DNA from: Clostridia bacterium
GTDB taxonomy: Bacteria; Bacillota; Clostridia; Oscillospirales; CAG-272
Length of the DNA stretch: 64,000 bases
Reading direction: 5' to 3'
Assembly: GCA_017504625.1 (NCBI GenBank)
Contig: JAFVQU010000011.1
Span: 10,035-74,034, forward strand
A program made the translations under genes and the position numbers. The notes under the pieces are model-generated. The model made no database searches, was not told the DNA's origin, and worked only from the letters and a program-made list of their open reading frames with translations. This document shows positions 1-62,026 of this stretch, in pieces (the first letter of the stretch is position 1; each line of letters begins with the position of its first letter).

Positions 1-2778
1 CTCTTAATAACTGCCAGATGTTGCGGACAGGACGTAACGGATAATACCTATGAGGAAGTTTCGGTCATTTCGGGCAACGCGGTAATTGAGTGCATTAATG
101 GTATTTATACGATCAAGGCAACGTCAAGCGGTGAAGTGACTATCAGAGTTAAATCCTTCTATGTAAATCAAACCTATACCGCTGAAGGAACCTTTTACTT
201 TGAGAACCTTAGCTTGGCGATCACAGCTGATAAGACCGAGGGATATGTTGGTGCAGATGTAAATCTCAGTGCGAGCTCCGAGTTGTATAATATCGACCCA
301 TCTCGTCTGGTCTATACCGTAGTTTCGGGTAACGCTACTATATCCGGTTCAATATTGCGTGCGAACTCTCCCGGCAAGGTAGTGGTTTCGGCTACGTATG
401 AGGATAACGGAGAGATATATAAAAGCAACGAGCTTAACTTGAATTTTGTGTATGACGGAAACGTGATTACAAACGCAGACGGATTGCTTGCCCTGAATAA
501 CAGCTCAGCGATCTACTTCCTTGAATCTGACATCGATCTTTCAAGCATTGAAGAGTGGACTCCCATTGAAAACTTCACGGGAACTCTTTACGGCGGAGGA
601 TATACGATCAAGGGCCTCAATATCGTTGCAAGATCTATGGAAGAGAACAAGGGCCTGTTTGCAACGCTTGGCGGTACGGTAGAAGATCTCAAGCTTGAGG
701 GTAAGCTTACCTGCCGCGGAGAAGCATCAAGGCTCGGACTTCTTTGCGGAACTAATAACGGCACGATCAAGAACGTAAGTGTAAGCGGAAGCATTGACAC
801 ACAGTATTGCGATTACGTCGGCGGTATCGCGGGATATTCGGATAACTCTTATATAACGGGTTGCACGACAAACGTCAGTATTACGGCGAGAAATTACGTT
901 GGCGGTCACGTGGGATATATGGTGGCTGTCCGCTCGGCTGACGTGGTTATCGAAAAGAACACAAACAACGGAGATATTATCGGATCTTCCTACGTCGGCG
1001 GTATTTACGGAGATCTCCACATCAGCGGATCGGGAAGAAACAACGATATAATAACAGTTATCAATAACGTAAATAACGGTAGCATAACAGGATCTGAGCA
1101 GTACATCGGCGGTCTTATCGGATTTGCCGAGGGTGAGCGCCACTCGGAGCGCCCCGATATATTCGGAGATTGGTATGATTATACGGGATGGATACATATA
1201 ACCGAGAGTGAGAATACTGAGGATATAATCGGATCTGACTATGTCGGCGGTATCCTCGGAAACGGAAACAATTACGTAAAAGAGATATCCTTTACGACTA
1301 ATAGCGGAAGCGTAAGCGGAAACAATTACGTCGGCGGATATGCGGGCAGGGCAAACGGCACTCATTTGCGCAATCTCACCAACAACGTTACCGTAACGGG
1401 TAAATCCTACGTCGGCGGTGTTGCGGGATACGCGGGTAAGATCGACGGATGTGTAAATAACGGCGAGATCAACGTCGTTGGCTACTCGCTTGAGGGTAAC
1501 AATCACGCAGTATCCTACGTTGGCGGCGTTGCAGGCTACGCGAGCGGTGCGGTCAGCTGCGTGAACAATTCTAACATTGACGCTACGGGCGGCGGTGACT
1601 ATATCGGCGGTATCGCGGGCTATGTTTTTGCAATTCGATCTGCGGATAACGTAATACAGAAGAATAAGAATCACGGCGCGATCATGGGTCAGGGATACGT
1701 CGGTGGCGTATTCGGTTACCTCGGTGTAGAGGGATCGCCCAACAACGAAGATGACATAACCGTAGTCGCTAACGAAAACGACGGCGAGATCGCGGGATAT
1801 CAGAACTATGTCGGCGGTATCATTGGATACGCTGTCGGTGAAATTCATAGCGTAGCAGGTACGTACGGCGGATCAACCGCTTACCTTTCCGAGATAAAGA
1901 TAATGGAATGTGTAAACGAGGCAAACGTTACGGGCGTTGACTACGTCGGCGGAATTCTTGGAAACGGTGAGAATTACGTCGCGGAGATCTCCTTTGCGAC
2001 CAATGAAGGTAACGTATCGGGTAATTGCTATGTCGGCGGCTACGCGGGCAGAGCAAACGGCACTGAGATGAGAACTCTTATCAATAACAGCACGATATCG
2101 GGTAAATCCTACGTCGGCGGTATCGCGGGCTATGCGGGCAAGTGTATTTCCTGCCAGAACAACGGAGATATATCAAATCAGGGATACAGTATAACAAGCG
2201 ATAATCAGGCGATCTCCTATATCGGAGGCATCGCGGGTTATCTGACCGGTGCAGAGAACTGTACCAATAACTCCAATATCAATGCGTCTACGGGCGGCGA
2301 CTATGTCGGCGGTATCGCGGGATACCTTCTTGCTGACAGAAGCGTTGACAACGAGATAAAGGGAAATAAGAACCACGGTACGATAAACGGCACCGCATAC
2401 GTTGGCGGTATATTTGGCTATGTCGGTATCGCGGGCTCTCCCAACAATAGCGACACAATAACCGTAAAGAGCAATATAAACGACGGTGACGTTACGGGCT
2501 CCAAGGATTACGTAGGCGGTATTATCGGCTACGCGGTCGGTGAAAGCCACAACGTAAGGCAGACACTCGGCGGATATTACACGTATACCTCGTACTTAAA
2601 GGTAATGGAGTGTAAGAACGAAGCAAACGTCAATGGCGTTGACTACGTCGGCGGTATCGTGGGAAGCTGTCATCAGTACGTAATGCCCGACGAGGTGATC
2701 TGGAATACAAATATGATCGACGGAAACGTTACTGCCGAGGGCGATAACGCAGGTGTGACGTTCGGATACATGGGTTAA
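1..2778 (+). CDS. GLUG-repeat (beta-helix type) surface protein, 5' end outside the window; Big_2-like Ig domain(s) followed by YVGG(I/V)xG(Y/F) repeats
   Basis: Frame 1 is open from nt 1, with no stop before the GTG at 136 used by the ORF track. The upstream residues (VISGNAVIECINGIYTIKATSSGEVTIRV) already look like an Ig/Big_2 strand pattern. Dozens of YVGGIAGY-type units follow. Paralog of the next two genes. Confidence 0.85.
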   Translation, partial: LLITARCCGQDVTDNTYEEVSVISGNAVIECINGIYTIKATSSGEVTIRVKSFYVNQTYTAEGTFYFENLSLAITADKTEGYVGADVNLSASSELYNIDPSRLVYTVVSGNATISGSILRANSPGKVVVSATYEDNGEIYKSNELNLNFVYDGNVITNADGLLALNNSSAIYFLESDIDLSSIEEWTPIENFTGTLYGGGYTIKGLNIVARSMEENKGLFATLGGTVEDLKLEGKLTCRGEASRLGLLCGTNNGTIKNVSVSGSIDTQYCDYVGGIAGYSDNSYITGCTTNVSITARNYVGGHVGYMVAVRSADVVIEKNTNNGDIIGSSYVGGIYGDLHISGSGRNNDIITVINNVNNGSITGSEQYIGGLIGFAEGERHSERPDIFGDWYDYTGWIHITESENTEDIIGSDYVGGILGNGNNYVKEISFTTNSGSVSGNNYVGGYAGRANGTHLRNLTNNVTVTGKSYVGGVAGYAGKIDGCVNNGEINVVGYSLEGNNHAVSYVGGVAGYASGAVSCVNNSNIDATGGGDYIGGIAGYVFAIRSADNVIQKNKNHGAIMGQGYVGGVFGYLGVEGSPNNEDDITVVANENDGEIAGYQNYVGGIIGYAVGEIHSVAGTYGGSTAYLSEIKIMECVNEANVTGVDYVGGILGNGENYVAEISFATNEGNVSGNCYVGGYAGRANGTEMRTLINNSTISGKSYVGGIAGYAGKCISCQNNGDISNQGYSITSDNQAISYIGGIAGYLTGAENCTNNSNINASTGGDYVGGIAGYLLADRSVDNEIKGNKNHGTINGTAYVGGIFGYVGIAGSPNNSDTITVKSNINDGDVTGSKDYVGGIIGYAVGESHNVRQTLGGYYTYTSYLKVMECKNEANVNGVDYVGGIVGSCHQYVMPDEVIWNTNMIDGNVTAEGDNAGVTFGYMG

Positions 2779-2793
2779 CATTTGGAGGATATG

Positions 2794-5700
2794 ATGAAGA
2801 TCAAAAGACTAATTTATTTATTGCTTATTCTGTCGTTGATAGTCGTAGGACTTGTTGCATGTGAAGAATCTAAGTACAACTTTATTGTTCTTACGCCGAA
2901 ATTTCAAATTTATACCGATGATAGCGTGACGATCCCCAACGTTTCTTACGAATTATCATTGGAGGATGTAAATACGGGCGTATACGTAGATCAGTCAAGG
3001 GTTACGTATTCGCTCTACGGCGACAACGACGTTAACGCGACGCTGAACGGAAACCGCATCAGCGCGACGGGCATCGGTGAGGTAGTGGTCAAAGCAACCT
3101 ATACCCACGAGGGAACCGAGTACACGACGTACACGGACGTCAAGTTTGTAGAGCTTGTTCCCAAGTTTTCTGTCGTCGGAGAGCTGAGCGTAGGAACTCC
3201 CGTTGAGTTTTACGTGATGTCTGAATGCGGACAGTATACCGTGCCGCTTGACTTTTCGAATATATCTATAGTATCGGGAAATGCCACGGTAGAGCAGGCG
3301 CAGGATAGCTACGGTAACGTATATTACGTTATTACGGCGCGTAGCGCGGGGGAAGTAACCGTGAGCGCCGATATTACGTATAAGGGACTTGATTTTACCT
3401 GCGAAGAAACCTTCAGCTTCACTAAAAAGCCATTCACTCTTTCAACTGAATCAAATGAGTTTTTCGTAGGATACGATCTGAAGCTTGTACCGACGCTTGA
3501 CCTTGAGGGCTTTGATCCTTCGCGCGTGGTTTACACGGTAAAATCGGGTAACGCAACTATAAACGGTGCAAATCTTCGCTCCACGATGGCGGGAGACGTT
3601 GTCGTTTACGCAACCTATGAGGATAACGGCGAGGTATATCAGAGTGACGATTGCGTCATAAGCTTCGACTACAGAGAAGGAACGATAATGGACGCCGAGA
3701 GCCTGCTTGCGATAGCAAATAACTCAGGCGAGTTCTACATCGGCTCTGATATAGACCTTTCGGGCATTGAGAGCTGGACTCCTATCGAAAACTTCACGGG
3801 AACTCTTTACGGTAACGGATTTACTATCAAAGGCTTGAATATCAAGGCAAGATCCTTAGAAGAGAACAAGGGACTTTTTGCAACTCTCGGCGGAACGGTA
3901 GAAAATCTTAAAATTGAGGGAACGCTCACCTGCCGCGGAGAAGCGCAGAAGCTCGGACTTCTTTGCGGAACGAATAACGGTACGATAAGAAACGTCACGG
4001 TAAGCGGAAGTGTTGAAGCTCCATATTCTGATTACGTCGGTGGTATCGCGGGATATTCAAACAACTCGAACATAACGGGATGCACGACGAACGTGACCGT
4101 AAACGCGAGAGAATACGTCGGCGGTAACTCGGGCTTTGTGATGGCGACGCGAAACGGAAGCATCGTAATTGCCGATAACGTAAACCACGGCGCTATCATA
4201 GGTAAATCGCGAGTAGGCGGCTTGTATGGTATGTTAGACATACTGGATGGCGAAAATACCGAAACGATTATAGTAATCTCAAATAAAAACTACGGTGAAG
4301 TCACAGGCTCGAAGAATTACGTAGGTGGTATAGTCGGTTTTGCTGAAGGCACGAAGTATACGTGGAATGCAGGCTATAGGTCAGCCACCGCATATCTGAA
4401 GATCACGGATTGCACCAATGAAGCTAACGTCGCAGGCGTTGATTACATTGGTGGAATTGTAGGAAATGCAGAAGCGTACGTGTCCGAAATATCCTTCTGT
4501 ACAAATACGGGCGACGTCAGCGGTAACAGCTACGTAGGAGGATACGCCGGCAGAGCTGTCGGAACTACTATGCAGGTATTGACAAACAATATCACGGTTA
4601 CCGGTAAATCTTACGTTGGCGGAATTGCAGGATTTGCAGGTTTGATCGACACGTGTACTAACAACGGAGACGTTAAAATCAGCGGATTTATCGTACAAGG
4701 CGGAGAAGAAAAAATATCTTACGCGGGCGGTATTGCAGGATATGTAACGGGTGCTACGAATTGTATAAACAATTCTGATATTGACGCATCGGCAGGCGGT
4801 GATTATATAGGCGGTATCGCGGGCTTCATTATGGCGACAAGATCGTCGTCAAACATAATAGAGAACAACCAGAACCACGGCAATATCATCGGTACGGGAT
4901 ACGTTGGAGGATTGATAGGAAAGTTTGATATAGATAGTGGGGAAAATAACGAAACTCTTATACTGACGTTAAACGTTAACGATGGACAAATTACAGGCTC
5001 TAAAAACTACGTCGGTGGTCTGATCGGTTACGTTGATGGCACAAGGTATACGTGGAACGCAGGATATAGCTCTGCCACCGCATACGTCAAAATTCTCGAC
5101 TGTACCAACGAAGCAGACGTTATCGGAGCAGATTACGTCGGCGGAATTCTCGGAGGCTCAGGATTATATTTGAGTGAAATCTCATATTGCTCAAGCATAG
5201 GAGATATCAGCGGCAATAATTACGTTGGCGGATACGCAGGAGAGGCAGACGGAACGACTATAAATGAGTTGATCAATAATAACACGATCACGGGTAGATC
5301 TTACGTCGGAGGTATAGCAGGATATGCGGGAAAATGCTATTCCTGTGAAAATAACGGAACTATCGTTAACAAGTCTTATGCGATCGTAAACAACACGCAG
5401 GCTATATCTTATATAGGCGGTATAGCGGGTTATGCAACCGCTGCGGAGGAATGTGTAAATAACGTTAATATTGACGTAAGCACAGGCGGTGACTACGTCG
5501 GCGGTATAGTAGGATTTTTGATGGCAGAAAGATCTTCTGCAAACGTGGTACGGAATAACAAAAATCACGGTAATATCATCGGTGCGGGATACGTTGGCGG
5601 ACTGATTGGAATGTTTGATATAAAAGAGGGACAGAATAACGAGACTCTTGAGATAGCGTCAAACACTAATGACGGAGACGTTACCGGTTCGAAGAATTAC

Positions 5701-5958
5701 GTCGGCGGTCTTATCGGCTTTGCTGAAGGTACAAAGTGTACGTGGAATGCAGGATATAGCTCTGCCGTCGCATCAATTAAAATCATCGAATGTACAAACG
5801 AGGCAAACGTGACGGGCGCTGACTTTGTTGGCGGTTTGGTCGGTAGCTGTGGCTTGTATGTTATGAGTGAAGAGGTCATCTGGGGCACCAACACGAACTA
5901 CGGCAATGTAACAGGCACGGGCGAGCATTGCGGTGAACGCTACGGCTCAATGGGCTGA
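2794..5958 (+). CDS. GLUG-repeat surface lipoprotein (several Big_2-like domains + three ~230-aa super-repeats)
   Basis: GGAGG at 2784-2788 and ATG at 2791/2794. Signal peptide with lipobox (LSLIVVGLVAC). Big_2-like segments. Conserved entry module PIENFTGTLYGNGFTIKGLNI. YVGGIAGY repeats. Tail YGSMG-stop. Confidence 0.9.
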   Translation: MKIKRLIYLLLILSLIVVGLVACEESKYNFIVLTPKFQIYTDDSVTIPNVSYELSLEDVNTGVYVDQSRVTYSLYGDNDVNATLNGNRISATGIGEVVVKATYTHEGTEYTTYTDVKFVELVPKFSVVGELSVGTPVEFYVMSECGQYTVPLDFSNISIVSGNATVEQAQDSYGNVYYVITARSAGEVTVSADITYKGLDFTCEETFSFTKKPFTLSTESNEFFVGYDLKLVPTLDLEGFDPSRVVYTVKSGNATINGANLRSTMAGDVVVYATYEDNGEVYQSDDCVISFDYREGTIMDAESLLAIANNSGEFYIGSDIDLSGIESWTPIENFTGTLYGNGFTIKGLNIKARSLEENKGLFATLGGTVENLKIEGTLTCRGEAQKLGLLCGTNNGTIRNVTVSGSVEAPYSDYVGGIAGYSNNSNITGCTTNVTVNAREYVGGNSGFVMATRNGSIVIADNVNHGAIIGKSRVGGLYGMLDILDGENTETIIVISNKNYGEVTGSKNYVGGIVGFAEGTKYTWNAGYRSATAYLKITDCTNEANVAGVDYIGGIVGNAEAYVSEISFCTNTGDVSGNSYVGGYAGRAVGTTMQVLTNNITVTGKSYVGGIAGFAGLIDTCTNNGDVKISGFIVQGGEEKISYAGGIAGYVTGATNCINNSDIDASAGGDYIGGIAGFIMATRSSSNIIENNQNHGNIIGTGYVGGLIGKFDIDSGENNETLILTLNVNDGQITGSKNYVGGLIGYVDGTRYTWNAGYSSATAYVKILDCTNEADVIGADYVGGILGGSGLYLSEISYCSSIGDISGNNYVGGYAGEADGTTINELINNNTITGRSYVGGIAGYAGKCYSCENNGTIVNKSYAIVNNTQAISYIGGIAGYATAAEECVNNVNIDVSTGGDYVGGIVGFLMAERSSANVVRNNKNHGNIIGAGYVGGLIGMFDIKEGQNNETLEIASNTNDGDVTGSKNYVGGLIGFAEGTKCTWNAGYSSAVASIKIIECTNEANVTGADFVGGLVGSCGLYVMSEEVIWGTNTNYGNVTGTGEHCGERYGSMG

Positions 5959-5972
5959 TCTCGGAGGACGTT

Positions 5973-8639
5973 ATGTATTATAACAATCAAAAAAAGGCGA
6001 CGAGAGTCAAGGAGCTGCTTTGTGTTTTGCTCGCGTTGGCGGTTCTTGCCGCGGCGTTGATTCTCGTCACGGGATGCGGCGGCGCATCTCCCGATAATTA
6101 CGGCGGGGAAATGCGGCTTCACCTTTCAACCGAGCCTTTACGCGACGAATCCTTGGGTGATTATGCGGACGTCGGTTATTACGTCAATTCCGAGGTAATG
6201 CTTACTCCAAGACTTGAAATTGAGGGATTTGATCCCTCAAGGGTAGCTTATACCGTCAAGTCGGGGAACGCCACTATTGAAAATTCAAAGCTTAAAGCAA
6301 GCGCGCTCGGTGAGGTCGTGATATATGCGACCTACGAGCAGGACGGCAAGATCTATCAGAGTGATGATGTGACCTTGTATTTCAGCGAGAGAAGGGGAAT
6401 TATCATTGATGCCGAGGGACTTCTCCAAATGGCAAACAGCAGTGATACCTTCTTCCTCGCGGCAGATATTGACCTTTCATCGTATGAAAGCTGGATTCCG
6501 ATTGAAAACTTCACGGGAACTCTTTACGGTAACGGATTTACGATAAAGGGAATCAATATTGTTGCAAGGTCAATGGATGAAAACAAAGGACTTTTCGCAA
6601 TTCTTGGCGGAACAGTCGATAATCTCAAGATTGAGGGAAAGATCTCCTGCAGCGGTGAGGCTTCAGGTCTTGGACTTCTTTGCGGAAGGAGCAAGGGCAA
6701 GATAACCAACGTGTCCGCAAGCGGCACGGTTGACGCGCCTTATTCCAATTACGTCGGGGGTATCGTGGGATATGCGGACGGCTCGCACACCTCGGGCTGC
6801 ACCTCGGACGTGAGCGTCACCGGAAGAGAATACGTCGGTGGTCAGGTCGGATATATGGCGTCCACGCGCAAGGGCGACGTTGCTTTCGCCGACAATATCA
6901 ACTACGGTAGAGTGGTAGGTGAATCCTACGTCGGCGGCGTGTACGGATGCTTCACCTTTGCACAGACCAGCGAGGAAAACAACGCGACTATCGTTGCAAA
7001 CAAAAATTTCGGCGAGGTATTTGGCACGAAGAGCTACGTCGGCGGAATAGTCGGATCGTTGTCAGGCGGTTCGTACGAGGTAAGATTATCCTCAAGATAT
7101 CAGTATTATTACTCGAGAGTAAGCCTTATCGAGTGTAGCAACGAGGCAAACGTAACAGGCGACGGCTACGTCGGCGGCGTTATCGGTAAGATAGGTAATT
7201 ACGTTACCGAGGTGTTGATATCGACAAACTCCGGTGAGATATCGGGAAACGATAATATAGGCGGAGTTGTCGGACACGCAAGCGTTTCAACGATAAAAGA
7301 CCTTACGAATAACGGTAAGGTTCTTGGCAAGGCTTACGTCGGCGGCATCGCGGGCAATTCCGGCTCGAAGCTTGACAAGTGTACTAACAACGGTGAGATA
7401 AACGTTATCGGCTTCAAGCTCACCGAGGATAACATGAAGGTGTCCTACGCGGGCGGTATCGTCGGTTACGCTATCGAGATAGAGAACTGCGTAAATAACG
7501 CGAATATCGAAGCGGGTGCGGCAGGCGACTTTGTAGGCGGCATCGCGGGATACGTAATGGCTCCTTTATCGAATAACGCTTCGATAAAGGATAACAAGAA
7601 TCACGGTGCGGTTATCGGAACGAGATACGTTGGAGGAGCATTTGGTTTTGTTGATATCACGTCAAATCTTGATAATGCGACGGTTTTGGTCGTATCCAAT
7701 GTAAACGACGGTGAGGTTACGGGCTCAGATAACTACGTCGGCGGAGTCATAGGATATGCAAAGGGCACAGACGCCTATGACCGGAAAGCAGGAAGCTTTA
7801 CGTCATATCTGAAGATAATGGAGTGTGAAAATGAAGCGGACGTTATCGGAACCGATTACGTCGGCGGTATTGTCGGATATGCGGATCAATACGTGGCAGA
7901 GATTTCATTCTGCAAGAATTCAAGCGACGTTATGGGTAACGAATACGTCGGCGGTTACGCAGGATATACCTCGAATGCGACAAGCATTAAAAATCTCACC
8001 AACAGCAATACCGTAACGGGTAAGGCATACGTCGGTGGAATAGCGGGCAGGGGCGGCTTGGCGCAGTCCTGTACGAATAACGGAAGCGTCAATCTCGTCG
8101 GATATATTCTGAGTGCCGATAATCAGCTTCTCTCCTACGCGGGAGGAATTGCGGGTTATCTTTACGGTGCAGTAGATTGTATCAATAACTCCAATATTGA
8201 TGCAAGCGAGGCAGGGGATTTCGTTGGCGGTATTGCGGGATATATCAGTATCTCAAGCGATGTGTCGGGCAACAAGAACCACGGCGAGATCAAGGGCTGC
8301 TCCTTTGTTGGCGGTCTGTTTGGATATTGCACTGCTACGGGAAATAATACCGTGCAGTTCAGTAAAAATATCAACGACGGCGCAGTCATAGGCGCGAACG
8401 ATTACGTCGGCGGTGTCGTTGGATGCTTTGGTAGTGCGTCAAGCAAATTAGGAATTATCAGAGTTACCGAATGTAAGACCGAGGCGAACGTTACAGGTGC
8501 TGACTTTGTCGGCGGAATCGCTGGAAAATGCGATAGCATTGTTGATGAAACTAAGGTCGTATGGTCTACGAATATTTGTGACGGCACGGTAAAGGCTACG
8601 GGTGAGCATTACGGCAAGCTTTACGGATCAATGAATTGA
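5973..8639 (+). CDS. GLUG-repeat surface lipoprotein, third paralog
   Basis: GGAGG at 5963-5967 lies 5 nt before the ATG. Lipobox LILVTGCGG. Same entry module and repeats as the two upstream genes. Tail YGSMN-stop. Confidence 0.9.
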   Translation: MYYNNQKKATRVKELLCVLLALAVLAAALILVTGCGGASPDNYGGEMRLHLSTEPLRDESLGDYADVGYYVNSEVMLTPRLEIEGFDPSRVAYTVKSGNATIENSKLKASALGEVVIYATYEQDGKIYQSDDVTLYFSERRGIIIDAEGLLQMANSSDTFFLAADIDLSSYESWIPIENFTGTLYGNGFTIKGINIVARSMDENKGLFAILGGTVDNLKIEGKISCSGEASGLGLLCGRSKGKITNVSASGTVDAPYSNYVGGIVGYADGSHTSGCTSDVSVTGREYVGGQVGYMASTRKGDVAFADNINYGRVVGESYVGGVYGCFTFAQTSEENNATIVANKNFGEVFGTKSYVGGIVGSLSGGSYEVRLSSRYQYYYSRVSLIECSNEANVTGDGYVGGVIGKIGNYVTEVLISTNSGEISGNDNIGGVVGHASVSTIKDLTNNGKVLGKAYVGGIAGNSGSKLDKCTNNGEINVIGFKLTEDNMKVSYAGGIVGYAIEIENCVNNANIEAGAAGDFVGGIAGYVMAPLSNNASIKDNKNHGAVIGTRYVGGAFGFVDITSNLDNATVLVVSNVNDGEVTGSDNYVGGVIGYAKGTDAYDRKAGSFTSYLKIMECENEADVIGTDYVGGIVGYADQYVAEISFCKNSSDVMGNEYVGGYAGYTSNATSIKNLTNSNTVTGKAYVGGIAGRGGLAQSCTNNGSVNLVGYILSADNQLLSYAGGIAGYLYGAVDCINNSNIDASEAGDFVGGIAGYISISSDVSGNKNHGEIKGCSFVGGLFGYCTATGNNTVQFSKNINDGAVIGANDYVGGVVGCFGSASSKLGIIRVTECKTEANVTGADFVGGIAGKCDSIVDETKVVWSTNICDGTVKATGEHYGKLYGSMN

Positions 8640-20764: not shown

Positions 20765-21586
20765 ATGGGATTTGTTGATATGATAAGTAATTTTATGCAA
20801 ATGACGTCATGGGGAATGGAAAAGCCGAAGGCGTATGGCCTTTTCCACCTTAGCTTTATGCTTATCGGCTTTGCGCTCTGCGGATTTTTGGCATGGAGAT
20901 TGCGCCGTGTGAACGAGAAGGCAAACCGTGCGATATTGCTTACCTCGGGTATTTTTTTGCTTATATGCGAGCTTTACAAGCAGCTTTTCTATACCTTTGT
21001 CGTAAACCCCGGTGAGGGATATACCTGGTGGATATTCCCGTTCCAGCTTTGCAGTATTCCTATGTATTTCTGTATAATAATCCCTTTGCTCAGAAAGGGA
21101 AAGCTTCGCCGCTCGCTCGCCAATTTCGTCGTGGCGTATAATCTGCTTGGCGGCGCGATAGCTTTTCTTGAGCCGTCGGGACTTTTCCACGAATATTGGA
21201 CGCTTACGCTTCACGCGCTTGTCTGGCATATGATGCTTGTTTTCGTTGGACTTTACGTAGGCTTTTCGGGACAGGGATGCTCGGAAAAGCGCGACTATAA
21301 GTCTGCGACTCTTACCTTCCTATCACTCTGCTGCGTTGCCTTTGCGATAAACTGCATTTTTATGAAGGCATCGGAAAACACTATTAATATGTTTTTTATC
21401 GGCCCCCGCGTATCCTCGCTTATCATCGTCAAGCAGATAGGAGAGGCTTTCGGTTGGTACGTCGGCACTCTGTGCTATATTCCCGCGGTCTGCCTTGGCG
21501 CGTTTGTCGTATATAAGATATTCTACCGCATCAATAATAAAAAGAAGGCACAAGCACCCGTGATCCGCGAAAAACAGCTTGTATAA
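20765..21586 (+). CDS. YwaF/TIGR02206 (TMEM164-like) membrane protein
   Basis: Multi-pass protein with GLFHLSFML..., FPFQLCSIPMY. A paralog-like gene lies at 55067-55774. Start codon uncertain. Confidence 0.6.
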   Translation: MGFVDMISNFMQMTSWGMEKPKAYGLFHLSFMLIGFALCGFLAWRLRRVNEKANRAILLTSGIFLLICELYKQLFYTFVVNPGEGYTWWIFPFQLCSIPMYFCIIIPLLRKGKLRRSLANFVVAYNLLGGAIAFLEPSGLFHEYWTLTLHALVWHMMLVFVGLYVGFSGQGCSEKRDYKSATLTFLSLCCVAFAINCIFMKASENTINMFFIGPRVSSLIIVKQIGEAFGWYVGTLCYIPAVCLGAFVVYKIFYRINNKKKAQAPVIREKQLV

Positions 21587-21600
21587 ATACAGATAATCTA

Positions 21601-21629
21601 TTGACTTTGCGCGTGTAAAGTGCTATACT
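21601..21629 (+). promoter_or_regulatory. SigA-type promoter upstream of the phosphonate operon leader
   Basis: TTGACT, 17-nt spacer, TATACT. Confidence 0.65.
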
Positions 21630-21635
21630 TAAACT

Positions 21636-21788
21636 GTTCAAAGAGCTTTTTGCAAAAGCACAATCTACGTGCTATGACGAGCCGTTAGGTTGACAGAGCG
21701 CCAAAAAGCGACACTGTAGAGCGGATGTATGTCCACTCTATCAAGGAATAAATTTCAAAAGCCGAGAGCAACCCCTCGGCTTTATTTT
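21636..21788 (+). promoter_or_regulatory. ~150-nt structured leader or small RNA ending in an intrinsic terminator (candidate riboswitch/attenuator)
   Basis: Hairpins gctttt-tgc-aaaagc and tagagcgga-tgtatg-tccactcta. Terminator aaagccgag-agcaaccc-ctcggcttt + atttt at 21758-21788, 20 nt before the operon start codon. Confidence 0.5.
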
Positions 21789-21808
21789 AAACGTAAGAGG
21801 AAAAACAA

Positions 21809-23818
21809 ATGAAGGCACTTATACTCAATTCGGGACTTGGACACAGAATGGGAGTTCTCACAAGCGAGCATCCCAAGTGTATGACCGAAATAACGAATAA
21901 AGATACGATACTTTCGCGTCAGCTCCGTTTAATTGCGGAGGCAGGCATTAGTGAGGTCGTAATGACCACGGGATATTATAACGAGATTCTCGTAAATTAT
22001 TGCCGCTCGCTCGGTCTTCCGTTGCATTTCACGTTTGTAAATAATCCCTTGTACGACAAGACGAACTATATTTATTCGATCTACTGCGCAAGGGAATATC
22101 TTTACGGCGACGATATCGTGCTTATGCACGGTGACCTCGTTTTCGAGGAGCAGGTATTTGAGCGCGTTATCAAGAGCGGGGAAAGCTGTATGACGGTAAG
22201 CTCCACTCTGTCGTTGCCCGAAAAGGATTTCAAGGCGGTGATACACGGCGGCAGAATAGAGAAGGTTGGAATTGAATTCTTTACCGACGCTATGGCGGCA
22301 CAGCCTCTCTATAAAATAAATGCCGATGATTTCAAGGTATGGCTTGACGAGATCGTGGCTTTTTGCGAGAGCGACAACAGAAAATGTTATGCCGAGAACG
22401 CCTTTAATAAGGTTTCGGATAAATGCAAGATATTTCCTCTTGATTTTGCCGACTCGCTTTGCGCCGAGATAGACACGCCTGAGGATCTTGCTGTTGTATC
22501 CGAAAAAGTGCGTGAGCTTGAGTCAAGAACCGTATATATGTGTTTCTCGACCGATATGCTTCATAGCGGACATATCGCTATCATCAAAAAGGCGGCAAAG
22601 CTTGGTAAGCTTACCATAGGCGTACTGTCCGACGAGGCGATCGCAAGCTATAAGCGTTTCCCACTTATGCCTTACGAGGAAAGAAGATCGCTTTTTGAGA
22701 ATATAAACGGCGTCGCAGGGGTAGTTGAGCAAAAGGAGCTTAGCTACGCGGCGAATATCCGCAAGCTTCGTCCTACCTTTGTTGTTCACGGCGACGATTG
22801 GCGCGAGGGCTTCCAGAAGCCTATTCGCGACGAGGTGGTTGAGGTTCTTGCCGAATACGGCGGAAAGCTTGTTGAATATCCTTATTCCAACGATGAAAAA
22901 TACAAGGAGCTTGAAAAAGCCTCGCGTGCGCAGATGTCGACACCCGATTTCCGCCGTTCAAGACTTTCAAAGCTTATCGCGATGAAGGGCTGCGTTTCGG
23001 CACTTGAGGCGCACAGCGGCATTACCGGACTTATAGCAGAGAACACAAAGGTGCTTCGTGACGGCAAGACCTACCAGTTTGACGCTATGTGGATATCCAG
23101 CCTTTGCGACTCTACCGCAAAGGGTAAGCCTGATATAGAGCTTGTTGATATGACCTCGCGCTTCCGTACTATCGACGATATTATGGAGGTCACGACCAAG
23201 CCGATAATTTTTGACGGCGACACGGGCGGACTTACCGAGCATTTCGTTTACACCGTCAGAAGCCTTGAAAGAATGGGCGTTTCGATGGTTATAATTGAAG
23301 ATAAGACGGGACTTAAGAAAAATTCGCTCTTCGGTACCGAGGTCGCTCAGACTCAGGATAGCATTGAAAACTTCTGCGCGAAGATCGCGGCAGGTAAAGC
23401 GGCGCAGAAAACGCGAGAGTTTATGATCTGCGCGCGTATTGAGAGCCTTATACTTGAGGCGGGAATGACCGATGCGCTCACACGCGCCTTTGCGTACGTA
23501 AAAGCGGGCGCGGATGCGATAATGATACACAGCAGAAAGAAGGATCCCGCGGAGATATTTGAGTTCGTAGAGAAATTCAGAACAGAGGACAAGACTACAC
23601 CTATCGTAGTAGTTCCCACGTCCTTCAACTCTGTAACCGAGGACGAATTCAAGGAGAGAGGCGTAAACGTAGTAATATACGCAAATCAACTCACGCGCAG
23701 CGGATTTCCCGCAATGCAGAAGGTAGCGACGACGATCCTTGAAAACCGTCGCGCCAAGGAAGCAGACGATATGTGTATGTCAATTAAGGAGATAATCACA
23801 CTCATTCCGGAGGAATAA
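21809..23818 (+). CDS. pepM: tri-domain fusion: LicC/PntC-like NTP-transferase + TagD/Fom1-type cytidylyltransferase (HxGH) + phosphoenolpyruvate mutase
   Basis: aa 1-235: MKALILNSGLGHRMG (G-rich NTP-transferase loop). aa ~243-375: CFSTDMLHSGHIAIIKKA...VVHGDDW. aa ~385-669: EAHSGITGLIAE, FDGDTGG, IIEDKTGLKKNS (PepM EDKxxxxxNS motif). Confidence 0.85.
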   Translation: MKALILNSGLGHRMGVLTSEHPKCMTEITNKDTILSRQLRLIAEAGISEVVMTTGYYNEILVNYCRSLGLPLHFTFVNNPLYDKTNYIYSIYCAREYLYGDDIVLMHGDLVFEEQVFERVIKSGESCMTVSSTLSLPEKDFKAVIHGGRIEKVGIEFFTDAMAAQPLYKINADDFKVWLDEIVAFCESDNRKCYAENAFNKVSDKCKIFPLDFADSLCAEIDTPEDLAVVSEKVRELESRTVYMCFSTDMLHSGHIAIIKKAAKLGKLTIGVLSDEAIASYKRFPLMPYEERRSLFENINGVAGVVEQKELSYAANIRKLRPTFVVHGDDWREGFQKPIRDEVVEVLAEYGGKLVEYPYSNDEKYKELEKASRAQMSTPDFRRSRLSKLIAMKGCVSALEAHSGITGLIAENTKVLRDGKTYQFDAMWISSLCDSTAKGKPDIELVDMTSRFRTIDDIMEVTTKPIIFDGDTGGLTEHFVYTVRSLERMGVSMVIIEDKTGLKKNSLFGTEVAQTQDSIENFCAKIAAGKAAQKTREFMICARIESLILEAGMTDALTRAFAYVKAGADAIMIHSRKKDPAEIFEFVEKFRTEDKTTPIVVVPTSFNSVTEDEFKERGVNVVIYANQLTRSGFPAMQKVATTILENRRAKEADDMCMSIKEIITLIPEE

Positions 23819-23820
23819 CA

Positions 23821-24936
23821 GTGAGTCAGAGAATAGTAAACGGCGTTAAGTCGTACGATGAAATAGGCAAGATAATAAGGGAATACGGAGCGGAGAAATT
23901 TATGCTCGTATGCGGCGGCTCGCTTTCGCGCCTTGAGATTGGTAAATACCTTATGGGGCTTGATATCGAGCATATCGTGTTCAGCGATTTTTCGCCCAAC
24001 CCGAATTATGAGGATATCGTTCCTGCGGTTGAGCTTTTTAAACGCGAGGGCTGTGACCTTATAGTCGCGGCAGGCGGCGGAAGCGCGATTGACGTAGCCA
24101 AGTGCATAAAGCTTTACGCGCCGCTTGATCCTACGAAGAACTATCTTGAGCAAGAGGCAAATGCAAGCGACATCCCGCTTGTAGCAATTCCTACGACTGC
24201 CGGAACGGGAAGTGAATCGACGAGATATTCGGTCATCTATTACAAGGGCGAAAAGCAGTCGGTGCATCACGCATCAATAGTTCCCGACGTGGCAATACTT
24301 TTGCCCGAGGTACTCGCGACTCTGCCGATATATCAGAAAAAATGCACTGTGCTTGACGCGCTTTGCCAGGCGATCGAGTCTTATTGGTCGGTATTCTCGA
24401 CCGATGAGTCGAAAAAGCTTGCCGATGAGGCAATAAGACTTATCTGGGCGAATATAGAGGATTATATTTTCGATCCCGCGCCCTCGCACGAAACACTTGA
24501 GAAAATAATGCTCGGCTCGTGCCTTGCGGGTCAGGCGATAAATATTACCGCAACTACTGCGCCCCACGCGATGAGCTACAAGCTCACGACAACCTACGGC
24601 TTGCCGCACGGTCACTCGGTCGGCATTTCCTTACTGAGAGTTTGGAGATATATGCTCTCGCACGGTGAAAAATGCACCGATAAGCGCGGATACGACTATC
24701 TTTTGTCTGTTTTCGGCAATATTGCCGCCGCTATGTCTTGCGAAAGCGTGGAAACCGCCCTCGCGGCATACGAAAATCTCCTTTGCAAAATGGAGATTTC
24801 CGGCCCGATACCCGAAAACAAGGAAGCTGAGGTCGCGCTTTTGGCGGGAGCGGTCAACGTCGAGCGACTCGGAAACAATCCCGTCGCGCTTGACACCGCC
24901 GCGCTCGAACAACTTTACGGAGAAATATTAAGATAA
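23821..24936 (+). CDS. iron-containing (group III) alcohol dehydrogenase; by context a phosphonoacetaldehyde reductase (PhpC/FomC-like)
   Basis: GGAGG 7 nt before the GTG. GGGSAIDVAKCI, PTTAGTGSE and His-rich metal site (HAMSY..., HGHSV). It sits between pepM and ppd. Confidence 0.75.
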   Translation: MSQRIVNGVKSYDEIGKIIREYGAEKFMLVCGGSLSRLEIGKYLMGLDIEHIVFSDFSPNPNYEDIVPAVELFKREGCDLIVAAGGGSAIDVAKCIKLYAPLDPTKNYLEQEANASDIPLVAIPTTAGTGSESTRYSVIYYKGEKQSVHHASIVPDVAILLPEVLATLPIYQKKCTVLDALCQAIESYWSVFSTDESKKLADEAIRLIWANIEDYIFDPAPSHETLEKIMLGSCLAGQAINITATTAPHAMSYKLTTTYGLPHGHSVGISLLRVWRYMLSHGEKCTDKRGYDYLLSVFGNIAAAMSCESVETALAAYENLLCKMEISGPIPENKEAEVALLAGAVNVERLGNNPVALDTAALEQLYGEILR

Positions 24937-26042
24937 TGAAGCTTGATTTTTTAGATAAATACGAATATTTTACGGGCGTGCCCGACTCGCTCCTCTCACC
25001 GCTTTGCAATTATCTTTTTGATAAGTACGGCATAGGTGACAGACATATCATTGCGGCAAACGAGGGCAACGCGGTCGGACTTGCGGCAGGATATCACCTT
25101 GCAACCGGCAAAACTCCCGTCGTTTACCTGCAGAATAGCGGACTTGGAAACATAATCAATCCCGTGGCGTCGCTTCTTAACGATAAGGTCTACGGCATAC
25201 CCTGTCTATTTATAGTTGGTTGGCGCGGCGAGCCGGGCATACACGACGAGCCCCAGCATATCTATCAGGGCGAGGTCACACTCAAGCTCCTTGAGGATAT
25301 GGATATAGAGGTGTTCGTTCTTTCAAAAGACACTACCGAGGACGAGCTTTCTGTTGCGCTCACGCGCTTTGAGGATCGCTTCAAGATCGGCAAGCAGGCG
25401 GCGATAGTCGTCAAGAAGGGCGCGCTTGAGTTTGATGAAAAGATAAAGTTCACAAATGATCATGTAATGACACGCGAAAGCATAATCGAGCGCGTTACTC
25501 GCGTCACGGGCGACGATATCATCGTTTCAACCACGGGTAAGGCGTCGCGTGAGCTTTTTGAGATACGCGAGGGAGTTGACGGCGACCACAGCCGTGATTT
25601 TCTTACGGTAGGCTCGATGGGACACAGCTCGTCTATCGCGCTTGGAATTGCGCAGAGAAAGCCTGAGCGCAAAATATGGGTGCTTGACGGCGACGGCGCG
25701 GCTCTTATGCACCTCGGCGCAATGGCCACTCTTGGAGCAAATTCGCCTCGAAACGTGGTACATGTCGTGATAAATAATGCCTCGCACGAAACAGTGGGCG
25801 GACTTCCCACGGTCGCAGGTAAGATCGACCTTGTCAAAATAGCCGAGGGCTGCGGATATAGCCGTGCGGTTAGTGTTGACACTCCCGACGCGCTTGATAA
25901 AGCTCTCGCGGAGGCTAAAGTAGCAGATGAGCTTTGCTTTATCGAGGTCAAGTCCTCAATTGGCGCACGCGCCGACCTCGGCAGACCGACAACTACCGCA
26001 AAAGAGAACAAAGAGAAATTTATGGAATTTCTCGCAAAATAA
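24936..26042 (+). CDS. ppd: phosphonopyruvate decarboxylase (ThDP-dependent)
   Basis: TAATG overlap with the ADH gene. YFTGVPDSLLSPLCNY, NEGNAVGLAAGY, GDGAALMHLGAMATLG (ThDP motif), NNASHETVGG. Confidence 0.88.
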   Translation: MKLDFLDKYEYFTGVPDSLLSPLCNYLFDKYGIGDRHIIAANEGNAVGLAAGYHLATGKTPVVYLQNSGLGNIINPVASLLNDKVYGIPCLFIVGWRGEPGIHDEPQHIYQGEVTLKLLEDMDIEVFVLSKDTTEDELSVALTRFEDRFKIGKQAAIVVKKGALEFDEKIKFTNDHVMTRESIIERVTRVTGDDIIVSTTGKASRELFEIREGVDGDHSRDFLTVGSMGHSSSIALGIAQRKPERKIWVLDGDGAALMHLGAMATLGANSPRNVVHVVINNASHETVGGLPTVAGKIDLVKIAEGCGYSRAVSVDTPDALDKALAEAKVADELCFIEVKSSIGARADLGRPTTTAKENKEKFMEFLAK

Positions 26043-38607: not shown

Positions 38608-41355
38608 TTACTTTTCAAGCAAAATATCTCTGATTGCTTGAATTTCCTCCGCGGTTATGCCGATTTCAAGCAGGAATGCCTCGGTATGCTCGGCAAGCGT
38701 AGCATCTGAATCGCCGTATGCTTTAAGGCCGTTTATAAAGCTCTTGATGTTGTTGACCATCGTTGATCCCGGAACTCCGTCGGAGTTACCCGATACAGAG
38801 TTAAAGGAAAGCAAATATTCTCGGATCAACATCTCCTCTTCAACGCCGAGGAGCGCGAGTATCGTTGTCGTAACAGTACCCGTTCTGTCGCGTCCGATCG
38901 CGCAGTGGTAAAGCATAGGATAATTGTCCCTGATCGCAAACTGCGATATAGCATTGCGGAAGGATCCGTGATTTTCGTTTTCAAAAACTCCCGTGTACCA
39001 CTGAATGCTGATCGGAATTACTCTGATGTCACTGCCAAGAGGAGAAACGGTGCTTTGACCGCGCAGGTCAAGATCTGTTTTAATTCCGAGAAGCATTTTT
39101 ATGGTTTGCTTATCGTTTTCGCTGGCTGCCTCAAGCTGCGCGGAACGGTAGGCGATCCCTTGCTTTACGCGGTAGCCGTCAAGCGTGACGTAGCCCCCGA
39201 TATCACGGAAATTCGATATCTTTTCCGTGAAAATAAATCTTGGGTAATCCGCGGTGGTGAAGCAAGCCATATTAGATATCTGATCGCCCGCTTTGACCTG
39301 CCAGTAGTACGTCGTACTTGCCTTGAGATTATTGACCTTAATGCGCATGTAAAAGCTGTCTTCAGATCTCTTTGCAGTATAGGTGATCGGATTTGACATA
39401 TCTATTGACTCGGATATTATAAGGGTGTAGTCCTCAGCCTCTCCTCTGATCCACTCGAATGTGATTGCTTCAGGCAGACAAGCCTCAGTTTTGGTGAACG
39501 GATAAGCTGCTGAGGTAAGGTAGCTGAGATCGGCGTTCATATGATCGACGGTAGCCTTAGATGCAATGACCACGTCACGCGCTCCGTCCTCGGGTGCGGT
39601 GAGAGCAATCGACGAATCAGTGAGGTTGAAGCGTGCTACGCTGCCAATTGTTAAATGCTCACCGTTGTAGTCATAGAGCTTGTCGGAGGGACGCTGGGGA
39701 AATCTGTCAGTAGGAATATCACCGACATACCTCAGCTTGATATCAAACGTAGCTTGTGAAATTCCCATCGTGCGCTCTTCGATAGTCACGATTACGCCGC
39801 TCTCGGCTATCTCGGACGTGACCTTTTCCTTTAGCTTATCTGCAAGATTTTCACTGTCGTCAAAGGTGTATATAAGGCCTTGGAAAGTCCATGACAGGTT
39901 ACTCAGTCTTTCCTCAAGCTCGTAGTCGAGTGACTCGTAGGTGAAGGGAATATCGAGGTGGAGTACGTAGTTATCACTGTTTGTTATCGCGCGTACAACG
40001 AAGCAGTAATCCTTGCCCGTCATAAATCCACCGTAGTCAAGGAACGCGTTTGCGTAAAGCGAGAACGTGTTTCCGTCAATATTGAGAATTTGAGGCGCAA
40101 ACCATCTGACATTGTTACCCGTAACGTCGTCGTCAGCCGAAATTACGGCGTATTCAACCGTTTTGAGATTTTCAATGCCGTCAAAGCTGTTGTTTTCAAG
40201 GTAAATAAGACCGCCGCGGTCAAATCTCGTTTTCCACTGTTCCTTTGAGTCGGTCAAAGCGCCGTAGGGCGAGTCTGCTCGCTCAAGCCAGGTGTTTCTT
40301 ATGGGAGATATCGTCGCGCTGATATTTTTGACGACTACCTCGCTTCTGTCCGGCAGAGAAAGCATTGCATTGTAGGTGAGCTTGCCCGATTTTGCGGTCG
40401 TATTCTGCGTATATCCCGTTGCTTTGACCGTTATCTCGGCACTGATACCGAGGGTGGAAAGTCTGCTTGCGATCTCGGATGATACAAAATCTATTGCGCC
40501 GCCTCGGTAGAAGCAATTTTCGTTTATCGCCGTGACCTTGCAAAGCTCGTCGTATGAGATAACGAATTCAATACTTTTGATGTAAATATCGGTGTTGTCC
40601 TTGTTTCTGAAATAGAGCTTAAAGGAGCTTATCATTCCGTCAGCATCGGTAAGCTTGGCAATGTCCTTTGCTTCAAGTCCCGCATCACAAGTCATGAAGT
40701 CGCCAACCGCTCCCGAAAGAGAAGGACATTCGTTTATAAAGCTATCGTTTCTGTTGCCGTTAAAGGGAATTATGCGTATCTGACTTCCGTTTTTTACGTC
40801 ATAACCCGTAATAAACGTCACTGTCATACCCGAAATAGCGTTTGCGGGGATCGGAGTGTCAAGCGTAAGCGTGAATCCGCCTTGGTTATTTGTATTTTTG
40901 CAAATGTAATAAGCAGGCGAGCCGTTTATCTCTCTGTATCCGCACTCGGTACATTCTGCCGTGTTATGTATGCCTGATATATTGAGATTTGAGATCGTGA
41001 AGCTTCCAAAGCCGTCAAAATTGAGTGACGTGGTAACCTTTTCATTACCATTGGAGCTTACAGTGACGTAGCTCTTCTTGTCAGGTTCGATAACCGGAGA
41101 GGTAAGTGAGGAAATATCGGTGTATTCCTCGATTTCGGAAGCTGATTCCTCGGTAAGATCTTCAGTAAAATCTTCGGTTGTCGCCTCAGTTACTTTTTCG
41201 GTGGGGGCAGCCATGGTTTCCTCTGTTATCTCGGTGGACTCTTTAATTCTTTCGGAATTTGGAGCAGTACTTTCATCTGTATTCGCACCGCCGCAGGCGG
41301 TAAGTATTACGGTGAGTGCCGCGGCACATATATAAAGAAGAAGTGATTTTTTCAT
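38608..41355 (-). CDS. 915-aa lipoprotein with C-terminal Cys-based (tyrosine/dual-specificity type, Y_phosphatase3-like) phosphatase domain
   Basis: Lipobox LTVILTACGG. Acidic linker. About 600 aa that I cannot assign. FN3-like segment (TTYYWQVKA). FRDIGGY and the CX5R P-loop YHCAIGRDRTG. Confidence 0.8.
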   Translation of the reverse strand: MKKSLLLYICAAALTVILTACGGANTDESTAPNSERIKESTEITEETMAAPTEKVTEATTEDFTEDLTEESASEIEEYTDISSLTSPVIEPDKKSYVTVSSNGNEKVTTSLNFDGFGSFTISNLNISGIHNTAECTECGYREINGSPAYYICKNTNNQGGFTLTLDTPIPANAISGMTVTFITGYDVKNGSQIRIIPFNGNRNDSFINECPSLSGAVGDFMTCDAGLEAKDIAKLTDADGMISSFKLYFRNKDNTDIYIKSIEFVISYDELCKVTAINENCFYRGGAIDFVSSEIASRLSTLGISAEITVKATGYTQNTTAKSGKLTYNAMLSLPDRSEVVVKNISATISPIRNTWLERADSPYGALTDSKEQWKTRFDRGGLIYLENNSFDGIENLKTVEYAVISADDDVTGNNVRWFAPQILNIDGNTFSLYANAFLDYGGFMTGKDYCFVVRAITNSDNYVLHLDIPFTYESLDYELEERLSNLSWTFQGLIYTFDDSENLADKLKEKVTSEIAESGVIVTIEERTMGISQATFDIKLRYVGDIPTDRFPQRPSDKLYDYNGEHLTIGSVARFNLTDSSIALTAPEDGARDVVIASKATVDHMNADLSYLTSAAYPFTKTEACLPEAITFEWIRGEAEDYTLIISESIDMSNPITYTAKRSEDSFYMRIKVNNLKASTTYYWQVKAGDQISNMACFTTADYPRFIFTEKISNFRDIGGYVTLDGYRVKQGIAYRSAQLEAASENDKQTIKMLLGIKTDLDLRGQSTVSPLGSDIRVIPISIQWYTGVFENENHGSFRNAISQFAIRDNYPMLYHCAIGRDRTGTVTTTILALLGVEEEMLIREYLLSFNSVSGNSDGVPGSTMVNNIKSFINGLKAYGDSDATLAEHTEAFLLEIGITAEEIQAIRDILLEK

Positions 41356-46369: not shown

Positions 46370-46370
46370 A

Positions 46371-47870: not shown

Positions 47871-48137
47871 AGTTTTACCTTTCAATCACATTTATAGACG
47901 TATCGTTGACGCGTTACCGTCAATTAATACTGTCAAATATTAGTATAACACATATTGTAAGGAAAATCAAGCGAAAAAAGTCTTAAAAAATATTATTATG
48001 GAAGCAGTTAACAATTAAACGCCTATAATCTTATTGGGCTTAAATCAAAAAAACGTTAATTTTAATGCCGGTAAAAATATAGGCGTCAACTAAAGACCTC
48101 GAAAAATATTAAAAATCTAAAAAAAACCAAAAAAGTA

Positions 48138-61385: not shown

Positions 61386-61386
61386 T

Positions 61387-62004: not shown

Positions 62005-62026
62005 GTTTTAATTTAGGAGATAAGAT

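Follow-up and report, generated by a model that had tools for sequence, protein, structure and literature searches.

Why should one polypeptide join two unrelated cytidylyltransferases to a phosphoenolpyruvate (PEP) mutase? The question is raised by a gene in a 64,000-nucleotide (nt) stretch of contig JAFVQU010000011.1 from a Clostridia bacterium of the Oscillospirales; this whole stretch is called the window below, and coordinates without a locus label refer to it. The open reading frame (ORF) encodes a protein of 669 aa made up of an N-terminal nucleotidyltransferase domain of the LicC/PntC fold (NT), a cytidylyltransferase domain with an HxGH motif (CT) and a C-terminal PEP mutase domain (PepM), and is termed tri-domain here. 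An initial annotation had read these three catalytic modules from the translation, and both the ORF and every motif that it quoted were confirmed in place (GLGHR at aa 9-13, CFSTDMLHSGH at aa 245-255, VVHGDDW at aa 325-331 and EDKTGLKKNS at aa 497-506). It had also asked which substrate each nucleotidyltransferase domain activates, a question to which no answer was found in the literature searched. The analysis reported here shows that NT and CT travel as a pair, obligate in most clusters for 2-hydroxyethylphosphonate (HEP), and argues tentatively for a division of labour between them.

The protein carries three intact domains. Each exceeds its Pfam gathering threshold, NTP_transf_3 with 39.0 bits against 27 (aa 2-126, shared with NTP_transferase), CTP_transf_like with 46.5 against 21 (aa 249-345) and PEP_mutase with 184.6 against 31.5 (aa 388-644). 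Foldseek searches of the PDB with the AlphaFold model (mean pLDDT 77.9; about 90 in NT and 80-88 in CT) agree, recovering three folds independently, those of LicC, the Fom1 cytidylyltransferase (CyTase) and PEP mutases. The identical GenBank entry, MBR2335280.1, is annotated merely as 'phosphoenolpyruvate mutase [Clostridia bacterium]'. The architecture as such is already known, having been enumerated in 2019, and is very common in genomes from the gut and rumen. Rice et al. [2019, Nat Commun; PMC6697681, Figure 2b] counted 42 Ppm triple fusions with PF12804 and PF01467 in RefSeq (2.8% of Ppm) and gave them no function or context. Their class comprises proteins with PF12804, PF01467 and PF13714 on one polypeptide at gathering threshold together with the EDK motif; the 669-aa protein has all of these and so is a member. 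No later paper characterizing the triple fusion was found in the literature searched. To call the architecture unusual, as had been done at first, was an overstatement in view of the 42 fusions counted then and the 108 loci found across two scans here.

The C-terminal domain is, by the equivalog model, a true PEP mutase and is predicted to convert PEP to phosphonopyruvate. It scores 407.4 bits on TIGR02320 against a cut-off of 319.55, and 75-90 bits on methylisocitrate lyase models that have cut-offs near 354; the PnPy hydrolase and CPEP mutase models also score far under their own cut-offs. The EDKxxxxxNS motif, which separates Ppm from other members of the superfamily, stands at aa 497-506, and Foldseek matches include the PEP mutases 5unc and 1s2w (TM about 0.7). 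The partner that would pull the equilibrium, a phosphonopyruvate decarboxylase (Ppd; TIGR03297, 460.5 bits), lies two genes 3' of the tri-domain gene. Assignment to methylisocitrate lyase or another non-PepM member of the superfamily, which the initial annotation had held up as a possible refutation, is ruled out by TIGR02320 against the rival models.

The genes that follow indicate the pathway. A gene for an Fe-dependent alcohol dehydrogenase (Fe-ADH) starts 2 nt past the tri-domain stop codon, and its own stop codon overlaps the Ppd start codon by 1 nt. The Fe-ADH scores 137 bits on TIGR03405 (Phn_Fe-ADH), which is under the cut-off of that model. No 2-aminoethylphosphonate (AEP) transaminase (AEPT) is present in the cassette. 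With the Fe-ADH and Ppd as the next two coupled genes and no AEPT, the pathway predicted is from PEP through phosphonopyruvate and phosphonoacetaldehyde (PnAA) to HEP, and the tri-domain gene very probably heads a three-gene, translationally coupled cassette that produces and activates this compound.

Which domain would activate HEP is suggested by the relationships of CT. The initial annotation was right in calling it an HxGH cytidylyltransferase and wrong in calling it TagD-type. The Fom1 CyTase (5x3d) matches CT with E = 3e-43 and 151 bits, TagD with 28 and ECT with 36; on the TagD equivalog model TIGR01518, which has a cut-off of 165.4 bits, CT scores 36.2. Foldseek also recovers 5x3d, a structure with HEP-CMP bound (TM 0.90, rmsd 1.5 Å, 56% identity). 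The TagD-type assignment was dropped for a Fom1-type one on these bit scores, the identity and the TM value. The CT core (H252, G254, D275, K282, R283, R292, Q308, Y313, H327, G328, W331, R340 and Y359) is conserved in clusters of all types.

The likeness to Fom1, the enzyme of fosfomycin synthesis in Streptomyces wedmorensis, goes beyond CT. Residues 240-669 share its CT-PepM arrangement, and the partners are the same, Ppd corresponding to Fom2 and the Fe-ADH to FomC; given this arrangement, the CT similarity and the partners, the product is probably likewise CMP-HEP. The tri-domain protein differs from Fom1 in its added N-terminal LicC-fold domain and in having a CT that falls into a separate, NT-linked clade. 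No Fom3 (B12 radical SAM), Fom4 (cupin epoxidase) or FomD-like genes were found within 10 kb on either side or among the other scanned ORFs of the window. A fosfomycin-like antibiotic cluster was rejected for want of such genes, and CMP-HEP would therefore be a donor for surface decoration and not an antibiotic intermediate.

The N-terminal module bears out its first description as LicC/PntC-like. A profile of the NT subfamily matches LicC (1jyk) with E = 1e-18 and PntC (6pd1) with 2e-11, and Foldseek finds LicC (TM 0.84), IPCT (TM 0.86) and PntC as well. Over homologs of 37-100% identity the invariant residues are G9, G11, R13, K23, T85, N86, Y87, S90, H107, G108, D109, D140, Y168, Y194, A195, E196, N200, E220, D222 and D226, which form the signature stretches G9xG11xR13, K23, T85NYxYS90, H107GD109, Y194AE196, E220xD222 and D226. 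They include the GxGxR loop, the catalytic lysine and the carboxylate metal ligands of the LicC/PntC class, K23 corresponding to PntC K25, D109 to LicC D107 and E220 to LicC E216 in a residue-level mapping. NT thus shares with PntC (Tde1415 and Ari1348; 6pd1/6pd2) and LicC (1jyk) the fold, the catalytic lysine, the metal ligands and the E196 contact.

The difference lies in the pocket. PntC E104 and E196, and LicC D105 and D192, contact the amine of the substrate (Rice et al. 2019, PMC6697681). Of this pair of ammonium-contacting acids NT retains one, E196 (PntC E196/LicC D192); the other (PntC E104/LicC D105) is replaced by an invariant histidine, H107. The same authors describe stand-alone and AEPT-fused PntCs that were characterized as AEP cytidylyltransferases, and cite Fom1 as the HEP cytidylyltransferase. 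None of the 108 tri-domain loci has an adjacent AEPT, and the Fe-ADH stands there instead. As just one of the two acids is kept, NT was assigned neither to the AEP-specific PntCs nor to the phosphocholine-specific LicCs. On its sequence it is a distinct LicC/PntC-fold subfamily, set apart by about 19-25% identity, by H107, by a HEP context rather than one of AEP or choline, and by constant pairing with an HxGH CT in phosphonate clusters, with a single exception (L118, below). Exchange of Asp or Glu for H107 removes one negative charge, so that the pocket would fit a neutral hydroxyl head group such as that of HEP or a polyol phosphate.

Both sites therefore appear competent, and we infer, with less certainty than for CT, that NT is a second catalytically active cytidylyltransferase, non-redundant with CT. 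Degeneration of one module, the other refutation first envisaged, is ruled out by the invariance of the catalytic residues of NT and CT across homologs. It could still be argued that one of the two is non-catalytic and serves PepM as a nucleotide sensor or as an oligomerization scaffold, since feedback sensors typically sit on the enzyme of the first committed step and the proteins of the tri-domain clusters have a cysteine for the glycine preceding HxGH. However, the known catalytic and metal-binding residues of both are invariant over the same identity range and both domains also occur without PepM, and we regard this explanation as highly improbable.

The distribution of the domains was followed in two scans, which also supplied the survey of tri-domain frequency that the initial annotation had recommended. 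An NT-CT alignment was run against species-representative genomes and gave at least 515 related loci, of which the best 80 were analysed; a metagenome scan was seeded with an alignment of NT-FeADH fusions, a single-sequence query having given no matches. Flanks of 10 kb per side were seen around each locus. The best 80 genome loci are all tri-domain, with 68-81% identity, 58 of them in Clostridia and 22 in Bacteroidales according to their record titles. Cultured Clostridia among them include Ruminococcus sp. FC2018, Hominiventricola aquisgranensis CLA-AA-H78B and Clostridiaceae bacterium Marseille-Q4145, and the Bacteroidales include Xylanibacter ruminicola D31d and Prevotella. Clustering at 90% identity gives the same picture, the top 120 clusters consisting throughout of tri-domain proteins of about 669 aa from Oscillospiraceae, Ruminococcaceae or metagenome-assembled genomes of Clostridia. 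Within the cassette the ADH gene precedes Ppd in Clostridia and follows it in Bacteroidales, and the identity of about 70% between the phyla implies horizontal transfer.

These tri-domain loci are called type A. In the 51 of them that are well flanked, an Fe-ADH gene accompanies PepM without exception and Ppd in 98%. A LicD-family transferase is nearby in 41%, a TagF-family one in 33% and any LicD-, TagF- or sulfatase-type transferase in 69%, and Wzx, Wzy and glycosyltransferases are typical neighbours. The cassette thus behaves as a mobile module, placed in most cases within surface-glycan clusters. Beyond the earlier survey of the class by Rice et al., this places the triple fusion in the HEP (Fe-ADH) branch, among LicD/TagF glycan clusters and in Clostridia and Bacteroidales of gut and rumen. 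The HEP branch makes up 8.5% of ppm neighbourhoods according to Li and Horsman [2022; PMC8942020], who also found some clusters with two PntCs.

Relatives at 50% clustering show the modules in other combinations: CT-PepM, NT-CT, NT-CT-FeADH, NT-FeADH, HD-CT-PepM, CT-PepM-Ppd and CT-PepM-Ppd-AEPT. Two further kinds of HEP cluster result. Type B, with 17 loci from the metagenome scan, has the five modules of type A differently partitioned, as [CT-PepM][Ppd][NT-FeADH]; type C, with about 10 loci, has CT only. NT and CT are kept together at the 108 type A and the 17 type B loci, and also occur as free NT-CT and as NT-CT-FeADH. This pairing, the recurrence of the five modules as type B, the occurrence of NT-CT without PepM and the invariance of both sites are what is new here. 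That both domains persist together, their active sites invariant, in two fusion arrangements and even where PepM is absent argues against simple redundancy.

In several type B loci the NT-FeADH ORF runs on into LicD (L098, 2492-4921, 810 aa; L112; L128, 9650-12853). Larger still are an ORF of 1856 aa with NT-FeADH, LicD and a TagF-like domain (L102, 925-6492) and one of 1509 aa with NT-FeADH and two LicD domains (L117, 9992-14518). These giant ORFs adjoin CT-PepM and Ppd, and place the activation, reduction and transfer steps on one polypeptide. Two other loci, L130 (112-8531) and L141, hold three nucleotidyltransferases in one cluster, namely a distant NT (26% identity) with an aminotransferase and LicD, an NT (54%) with an Fe-ADH and a TagF-like gene, and CT-PepM with Ppd. 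Such a cluster may produce AEP as well as HEP decorations.

NT and NT-CT are also found outside phosphonate clusters. Standalone NT genes with 70-86% identity to the NT domain are monocistronic and lie in housekeeping surroundings (L010, L016/L017, L178 and L180/L181): behind hisS or close to plsY and gpsA and, for two lineages, next to the pyr operon. The 10 kb on either side of them encode no PepM. Free NT-CT proteins, with a CT 66-67% identical to that of the tri-domain protein, occur in three kinds of context. The first is glycan clusters with LicD, Wzy, Wzx and, directly upstream, a sulfatase-superfamily gene of about 395 aa; the second is a glycan cluster of Lentisphaerae. The third (L182-L184, 8457-13451) is an apparent operon that has no PepM and encodes a GlpT/PgtP-family organophosphate transporter, NT-CT, a UDP-GlcNAc 2-epimerase-like protein and an APH-family kinase. 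By analogy, this operon resembles a Lic-like route for the import and activation of an organophosphate. The sulfatase/alkaline-phosphatase-superfamily gene recurs directly 5' of NT-CT or tri-domain genes at several loci (L012, 8750-9934; L185, 8805-10004; L062; L131; L148).

From these data a tentative answer can be given to the question posed at the outset. The reading that we favour, while holding it with less than even confidence, is that CT takes HEP and NT takes a second hydroxylated organophosphate. In this scheme, whose steps as far as CMP-HEP have good backing from homology and synteny, the PEP mutase domain would convert PEP to phosphonopyruvate; Ppd would turn this into PnAA, pulling the unfavourable mutase equilibrium; the Fe-ADH would reduce PnAA to HEP; and the Fom1-type CT, with CTP, would form CMP-HEP. 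CMP-HEP would be the donor from which phosphotransferases of the LicD and TagF families place HEP on a surface glycan, a transfer that we infer from the company the cassette keeps. NT would activate a different hydroxyl-bearing organophosphate, the best guess being the conversion of sn-glycerol-3-phosphate to CDP-glycerol. One polypeptide would then provide both donors for a decoration with a phosphonate and a phosphate component.

The action of CT on HEP is suggested by its identity and structural similarity to the HEP-CMP-bound Fom1 enzyme, by its invariant core and by the position of Fom1 with CT-only HEP clusters in a neighbour-joining tree of CTs. A non-amine and possibly non-phosphonate substrate for NT is suggested by H107, by the fold likeness to IPCT, which is a polyol-phosphate enzyme, and by the standalone NTs near plsY and gpsA. 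That it may be a phosphate-type compound is suggested by the NT-CT gene that adjoins the GlpT/PgtP transporter and the APH kinase, and by the TagF-type transferases in a third of type A loci. A glycerol ester of HEP has reportedly been found in hydrolysates of HEP phosphonoglycans, in work attributed to Yu et al. in 2014. It is possible, if doubtful, that NT-CT is a conserved dual-donor module for CMP-HEP and a CDP-alcohol such as CDP-glycerol, from which LicD and TagF build a hybrid phosphonate/phosphate, teichoic-acid-like decoration on surface glycans of many Clostridia and Bacteroidales from gut and rumen. The wall teichoic acid pathway offers an analogy, and no more, as TarI and TarD (TagD) are also an NT-fold and an HxGH cytidylyltransferase and provide two CDP-alcohol donors for TagF/TarL- and LicD-type transferases. 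The present system differs in that CT falls below the TagD equivalog cut-off and the cassette has no conserved genes of a ribitol or glycerol pathway.

Several observations weigh against assigning HEP to CT and another compound to NT. Type B clusters join NT to the Fe-ADH that forms HEP, in some cases with LicD as well, which would suggest that NT itself activates HEP; the fusion parallels the characterized PntC-AEPT fusion. The L118 cluster has NT-FeADH, a plain PepM and Ppd, and no CT. The free NT-CT proteins of PepM-less clusters carry a CT close to that of the tri-domain protein with no evident source of HEP, so that either HEP is made or scavenged by way of genes elsewhere in these genomes or one domain, if not both, uses an ordinary phosphate ester. 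Of the type A loci that have a nearby transferase, 57% have just one, and the excess of transferases in NT+CT over CT-only clusters is non-significant (p = 0.06-0.09, with n=6 for CT-only). Finally, about 18 conserved positions, e.g. G245C (beside the HxGH motif), D312S and R342E, separate the NT-linked CT clade from the clade of Fom1 and the CT-only proteins; on this ground CT could be the domain of altered specificity.

One rival view is that NT and CT both cytidylylate HEP, as analogous but non-homologous enzymes with different kinetics, regulation or channelling to transferases. CT has its 56% identity to the Fom1 CyTase, relatives of NT are joined to the HEP-forming Fe-ADH and to LicD, the NT pocket suits a neutral hydroxyl head group, and each domain can be the sole activator of a cluster, CT in type C and in Fom1 and NT in L118. 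This view, however, offers no selective reason for keeping two invariant sites in at least 125 clusters of two topologies and two phyla, and it does not sit well with standalone NTs and with transporter- and kinase-fed NT-CT modules that lack an evident HEP supply; on balance we think it unlikely. The fusion of NT to ADH could also mean that both domains work on one carbon skeleton, but at separate points of the pathway or using different nucleotides, NT forming for instance CMP-PnAA for the ADH to reduce, or one of the domains taking an NTP in place of CTP. In other phosphonate pathways CMP conjugates do undergo later steps, as by Fom3 acting on CMP-HEP in the literature, but CTP is the preferred nucleotide of PntC, LicC and Fom1, and each acts on the phosphate or phosphonate that is the end product (Rice et al. 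2019, PMC6697681); we regard such an arrangement as quite improbable.

L118 (2911-11788) is the sole well-flanked NT-only cluster. It also holds a PlsC-like acyltransferase, an AMP-binding enzyme, a B12-binding radical SAM protein, a CDP-alcohol phosphatidyltransferase and a 220-aa protein, and may be a lipid-type phosphonate cluster for a (methylated?) HEP phosphonolipid or phosphatidyl-HEP. Its value as proof that NT activates HEP was downgraded, since the CDP-alcohol transferase could use HEP as the acceptor alcohol.

The clade-specific positions of CT raise a further alternative, in which the roles are reversed: NT would be a HEP-specific PntC, and the NT-linked CT would have switched substrate, e.g. 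to a TagD-like activity on glycerol-3-phosphate. The NT-FeADH(-LicD) fusions and the presence in L118 of NT without CT are in keeping with this, as is the CT tree, in which the NT-linked CTs form one clade of their own with some 18 substitutions. The CTs closest to that of the window are those of other NT-linked proteins (66-77% identity), the CTs of CT-PepM proteins being just 40-51% identical, and Fom1 falls with the CT-only clusters. Yet a protein 56% identical to an enzyme whose crystal structure contains CMP-HEP can usually be expected to share its substrate, the type B CTs lie nearer to Fom1 in the tree and likewise co-occur with NT, and the standalone NTs are in housekeeping contexts. 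A reversal of roles is therefore judged unlikely, and CT as the HEP enzyme, with NT serving a second substrate, remains the reading preferred here.

The features of the gene, its cassette and its 5' region are collected in Table 1.

Table 1. Coordinates of the tri-domain gene, its domains, the cassette genes and the 5' signals in the window
Feature	Coordinates	Strand	Basis
Tri-domain ORF, NT-CT-PepM	21809..23818	+	ATG start, 669 aa; Pfam, NCBIfam, AlphaFold, Foldseek
NT domain (aa 1-238), LicC/PntC-fold	21809..22522	+	PF12804, PF00483; profile match to LicC/PntC; TM 0.84 to LicC
CT domain (aa 239-365), Fom1-type HxGH cytidylyltransferase	22523..22903	+	PF01467; 5x3d match; H252-S-G-H255, H327GDDW331
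Interdomain linker (aa 366-385)	22904..22963	+	pLDDT <50 at aa 368-388, predicted disordered
PEP mutase domain (aa 386-669)	22964..23815	+	TIGR02320, PF13714, EDKTGLKKNS motif
Fe-ADH, putative phosphonoacetaldehyde reductase (PnAA to 2-HEP)	23821..24936	+	PF00465, PF25137; function from synteny
Phosphonopyruvate decarboxylase (Ppd)	24936..26042	+	TIGR03297 equivalog, 460.5 bits against cut-off 312.5
Promoter-like site, TTGACT-17-TATACT with TG extension	21601..21629	+	Consensus scan, 10/12; consensus match only
Terminator-like hairpin, AGCCGAG-N8-CTCGGCT then TTATTTTA	21760..21789	+	Read from sequence; just 5' of ribosome-binding site

Sequence inspection places a ribosome-binding site, AAGAGGA, 7 nt 5' of the tri-domain ATG, and the promoter-like site falls between the cassette and an upstream TMEM164-like gene. 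The intergenic leader (21587-21808, 222 nt) is structured, with a folding z of -3.46 against shuffles; it matches no Rfam family and is conserved only among contigs of the same organism. A riboswitch is thus unsupported, and the hairpin could serve for attenuation or simply end transcription of the upstream gene.

The immediate flanks appear to be unrelated to the cassette. Upstream are the TMEM164-like gene (20765-21586) on the forward strand and genes for PAP2, DUF5058 and an M20 peptidase on the reverse strand; downstream, on the reverse strand, are an EamA-like gene and a metal ABC transporter. TMEM164-like, PAP2 and DUF5058 genes had been considered as conserved parts of the system, representing a lipid route, but none of them adjoins the cassette in 160 other loci. 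As no flanking gene listed here accompanies the cassette elsewhere, all are excluded from the system. A second, distant TMEM164-like paralogue (55067-55816, reverse strand) has 24% identity to the first.

The whole 64-kb window lacks genes for transferases of the LicD, TagF or sulfatase type. A glycan-synthesis cluster on the forward strand (59518-62866), with a DegT aminotransferase, a Bac_transf initiating transferase, a PglD-like acetyltransferase and an HpcH-like aldolase, may extend beyond the end of the window; some 34 kb downstream of the cassette, it is a possible recipient pathway for activated HEP. A glycerophosphodiester phosphodiesterase (GDPD) gene beside an MFS transporter (45545-47885, reverse strand) could be a scavenging route for glycerol phosphate. 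Elsewhere in the window are three consecutive huge ORFs (136-8639, forward strand; 880, 1058 and 888 aa), which may encode surface or secreted proteins and have as their sole Pfam match a GLUG motif in the third, and a protein of 915 aa (38608-41355, reverse strand) whose sole recognizable domain is a C-terminal Y_phosphatase3 (aa 710-913).

To our knowledge, HEP-decorated glycans have been isolated from two actinomycetes only. The cassette points to a wide spread of HEP surface chemistry among Clostridia and Bacteroidales of the gut and rumen, and to its passage between the two phyla. As C-P bonds withstand phosphatases, HEP decorations could influence recognition by phages and the immune system, and phosphorus cycling in the gut. 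The consistent pairing of two unrelated cytidylyltransferases, whatever the fusion topology, makes the question of why there are two directly testable and, if the proposal is true, the dual-donor module would represent a widespread, uncharacterized class of microbiome cell-surface chemistry.

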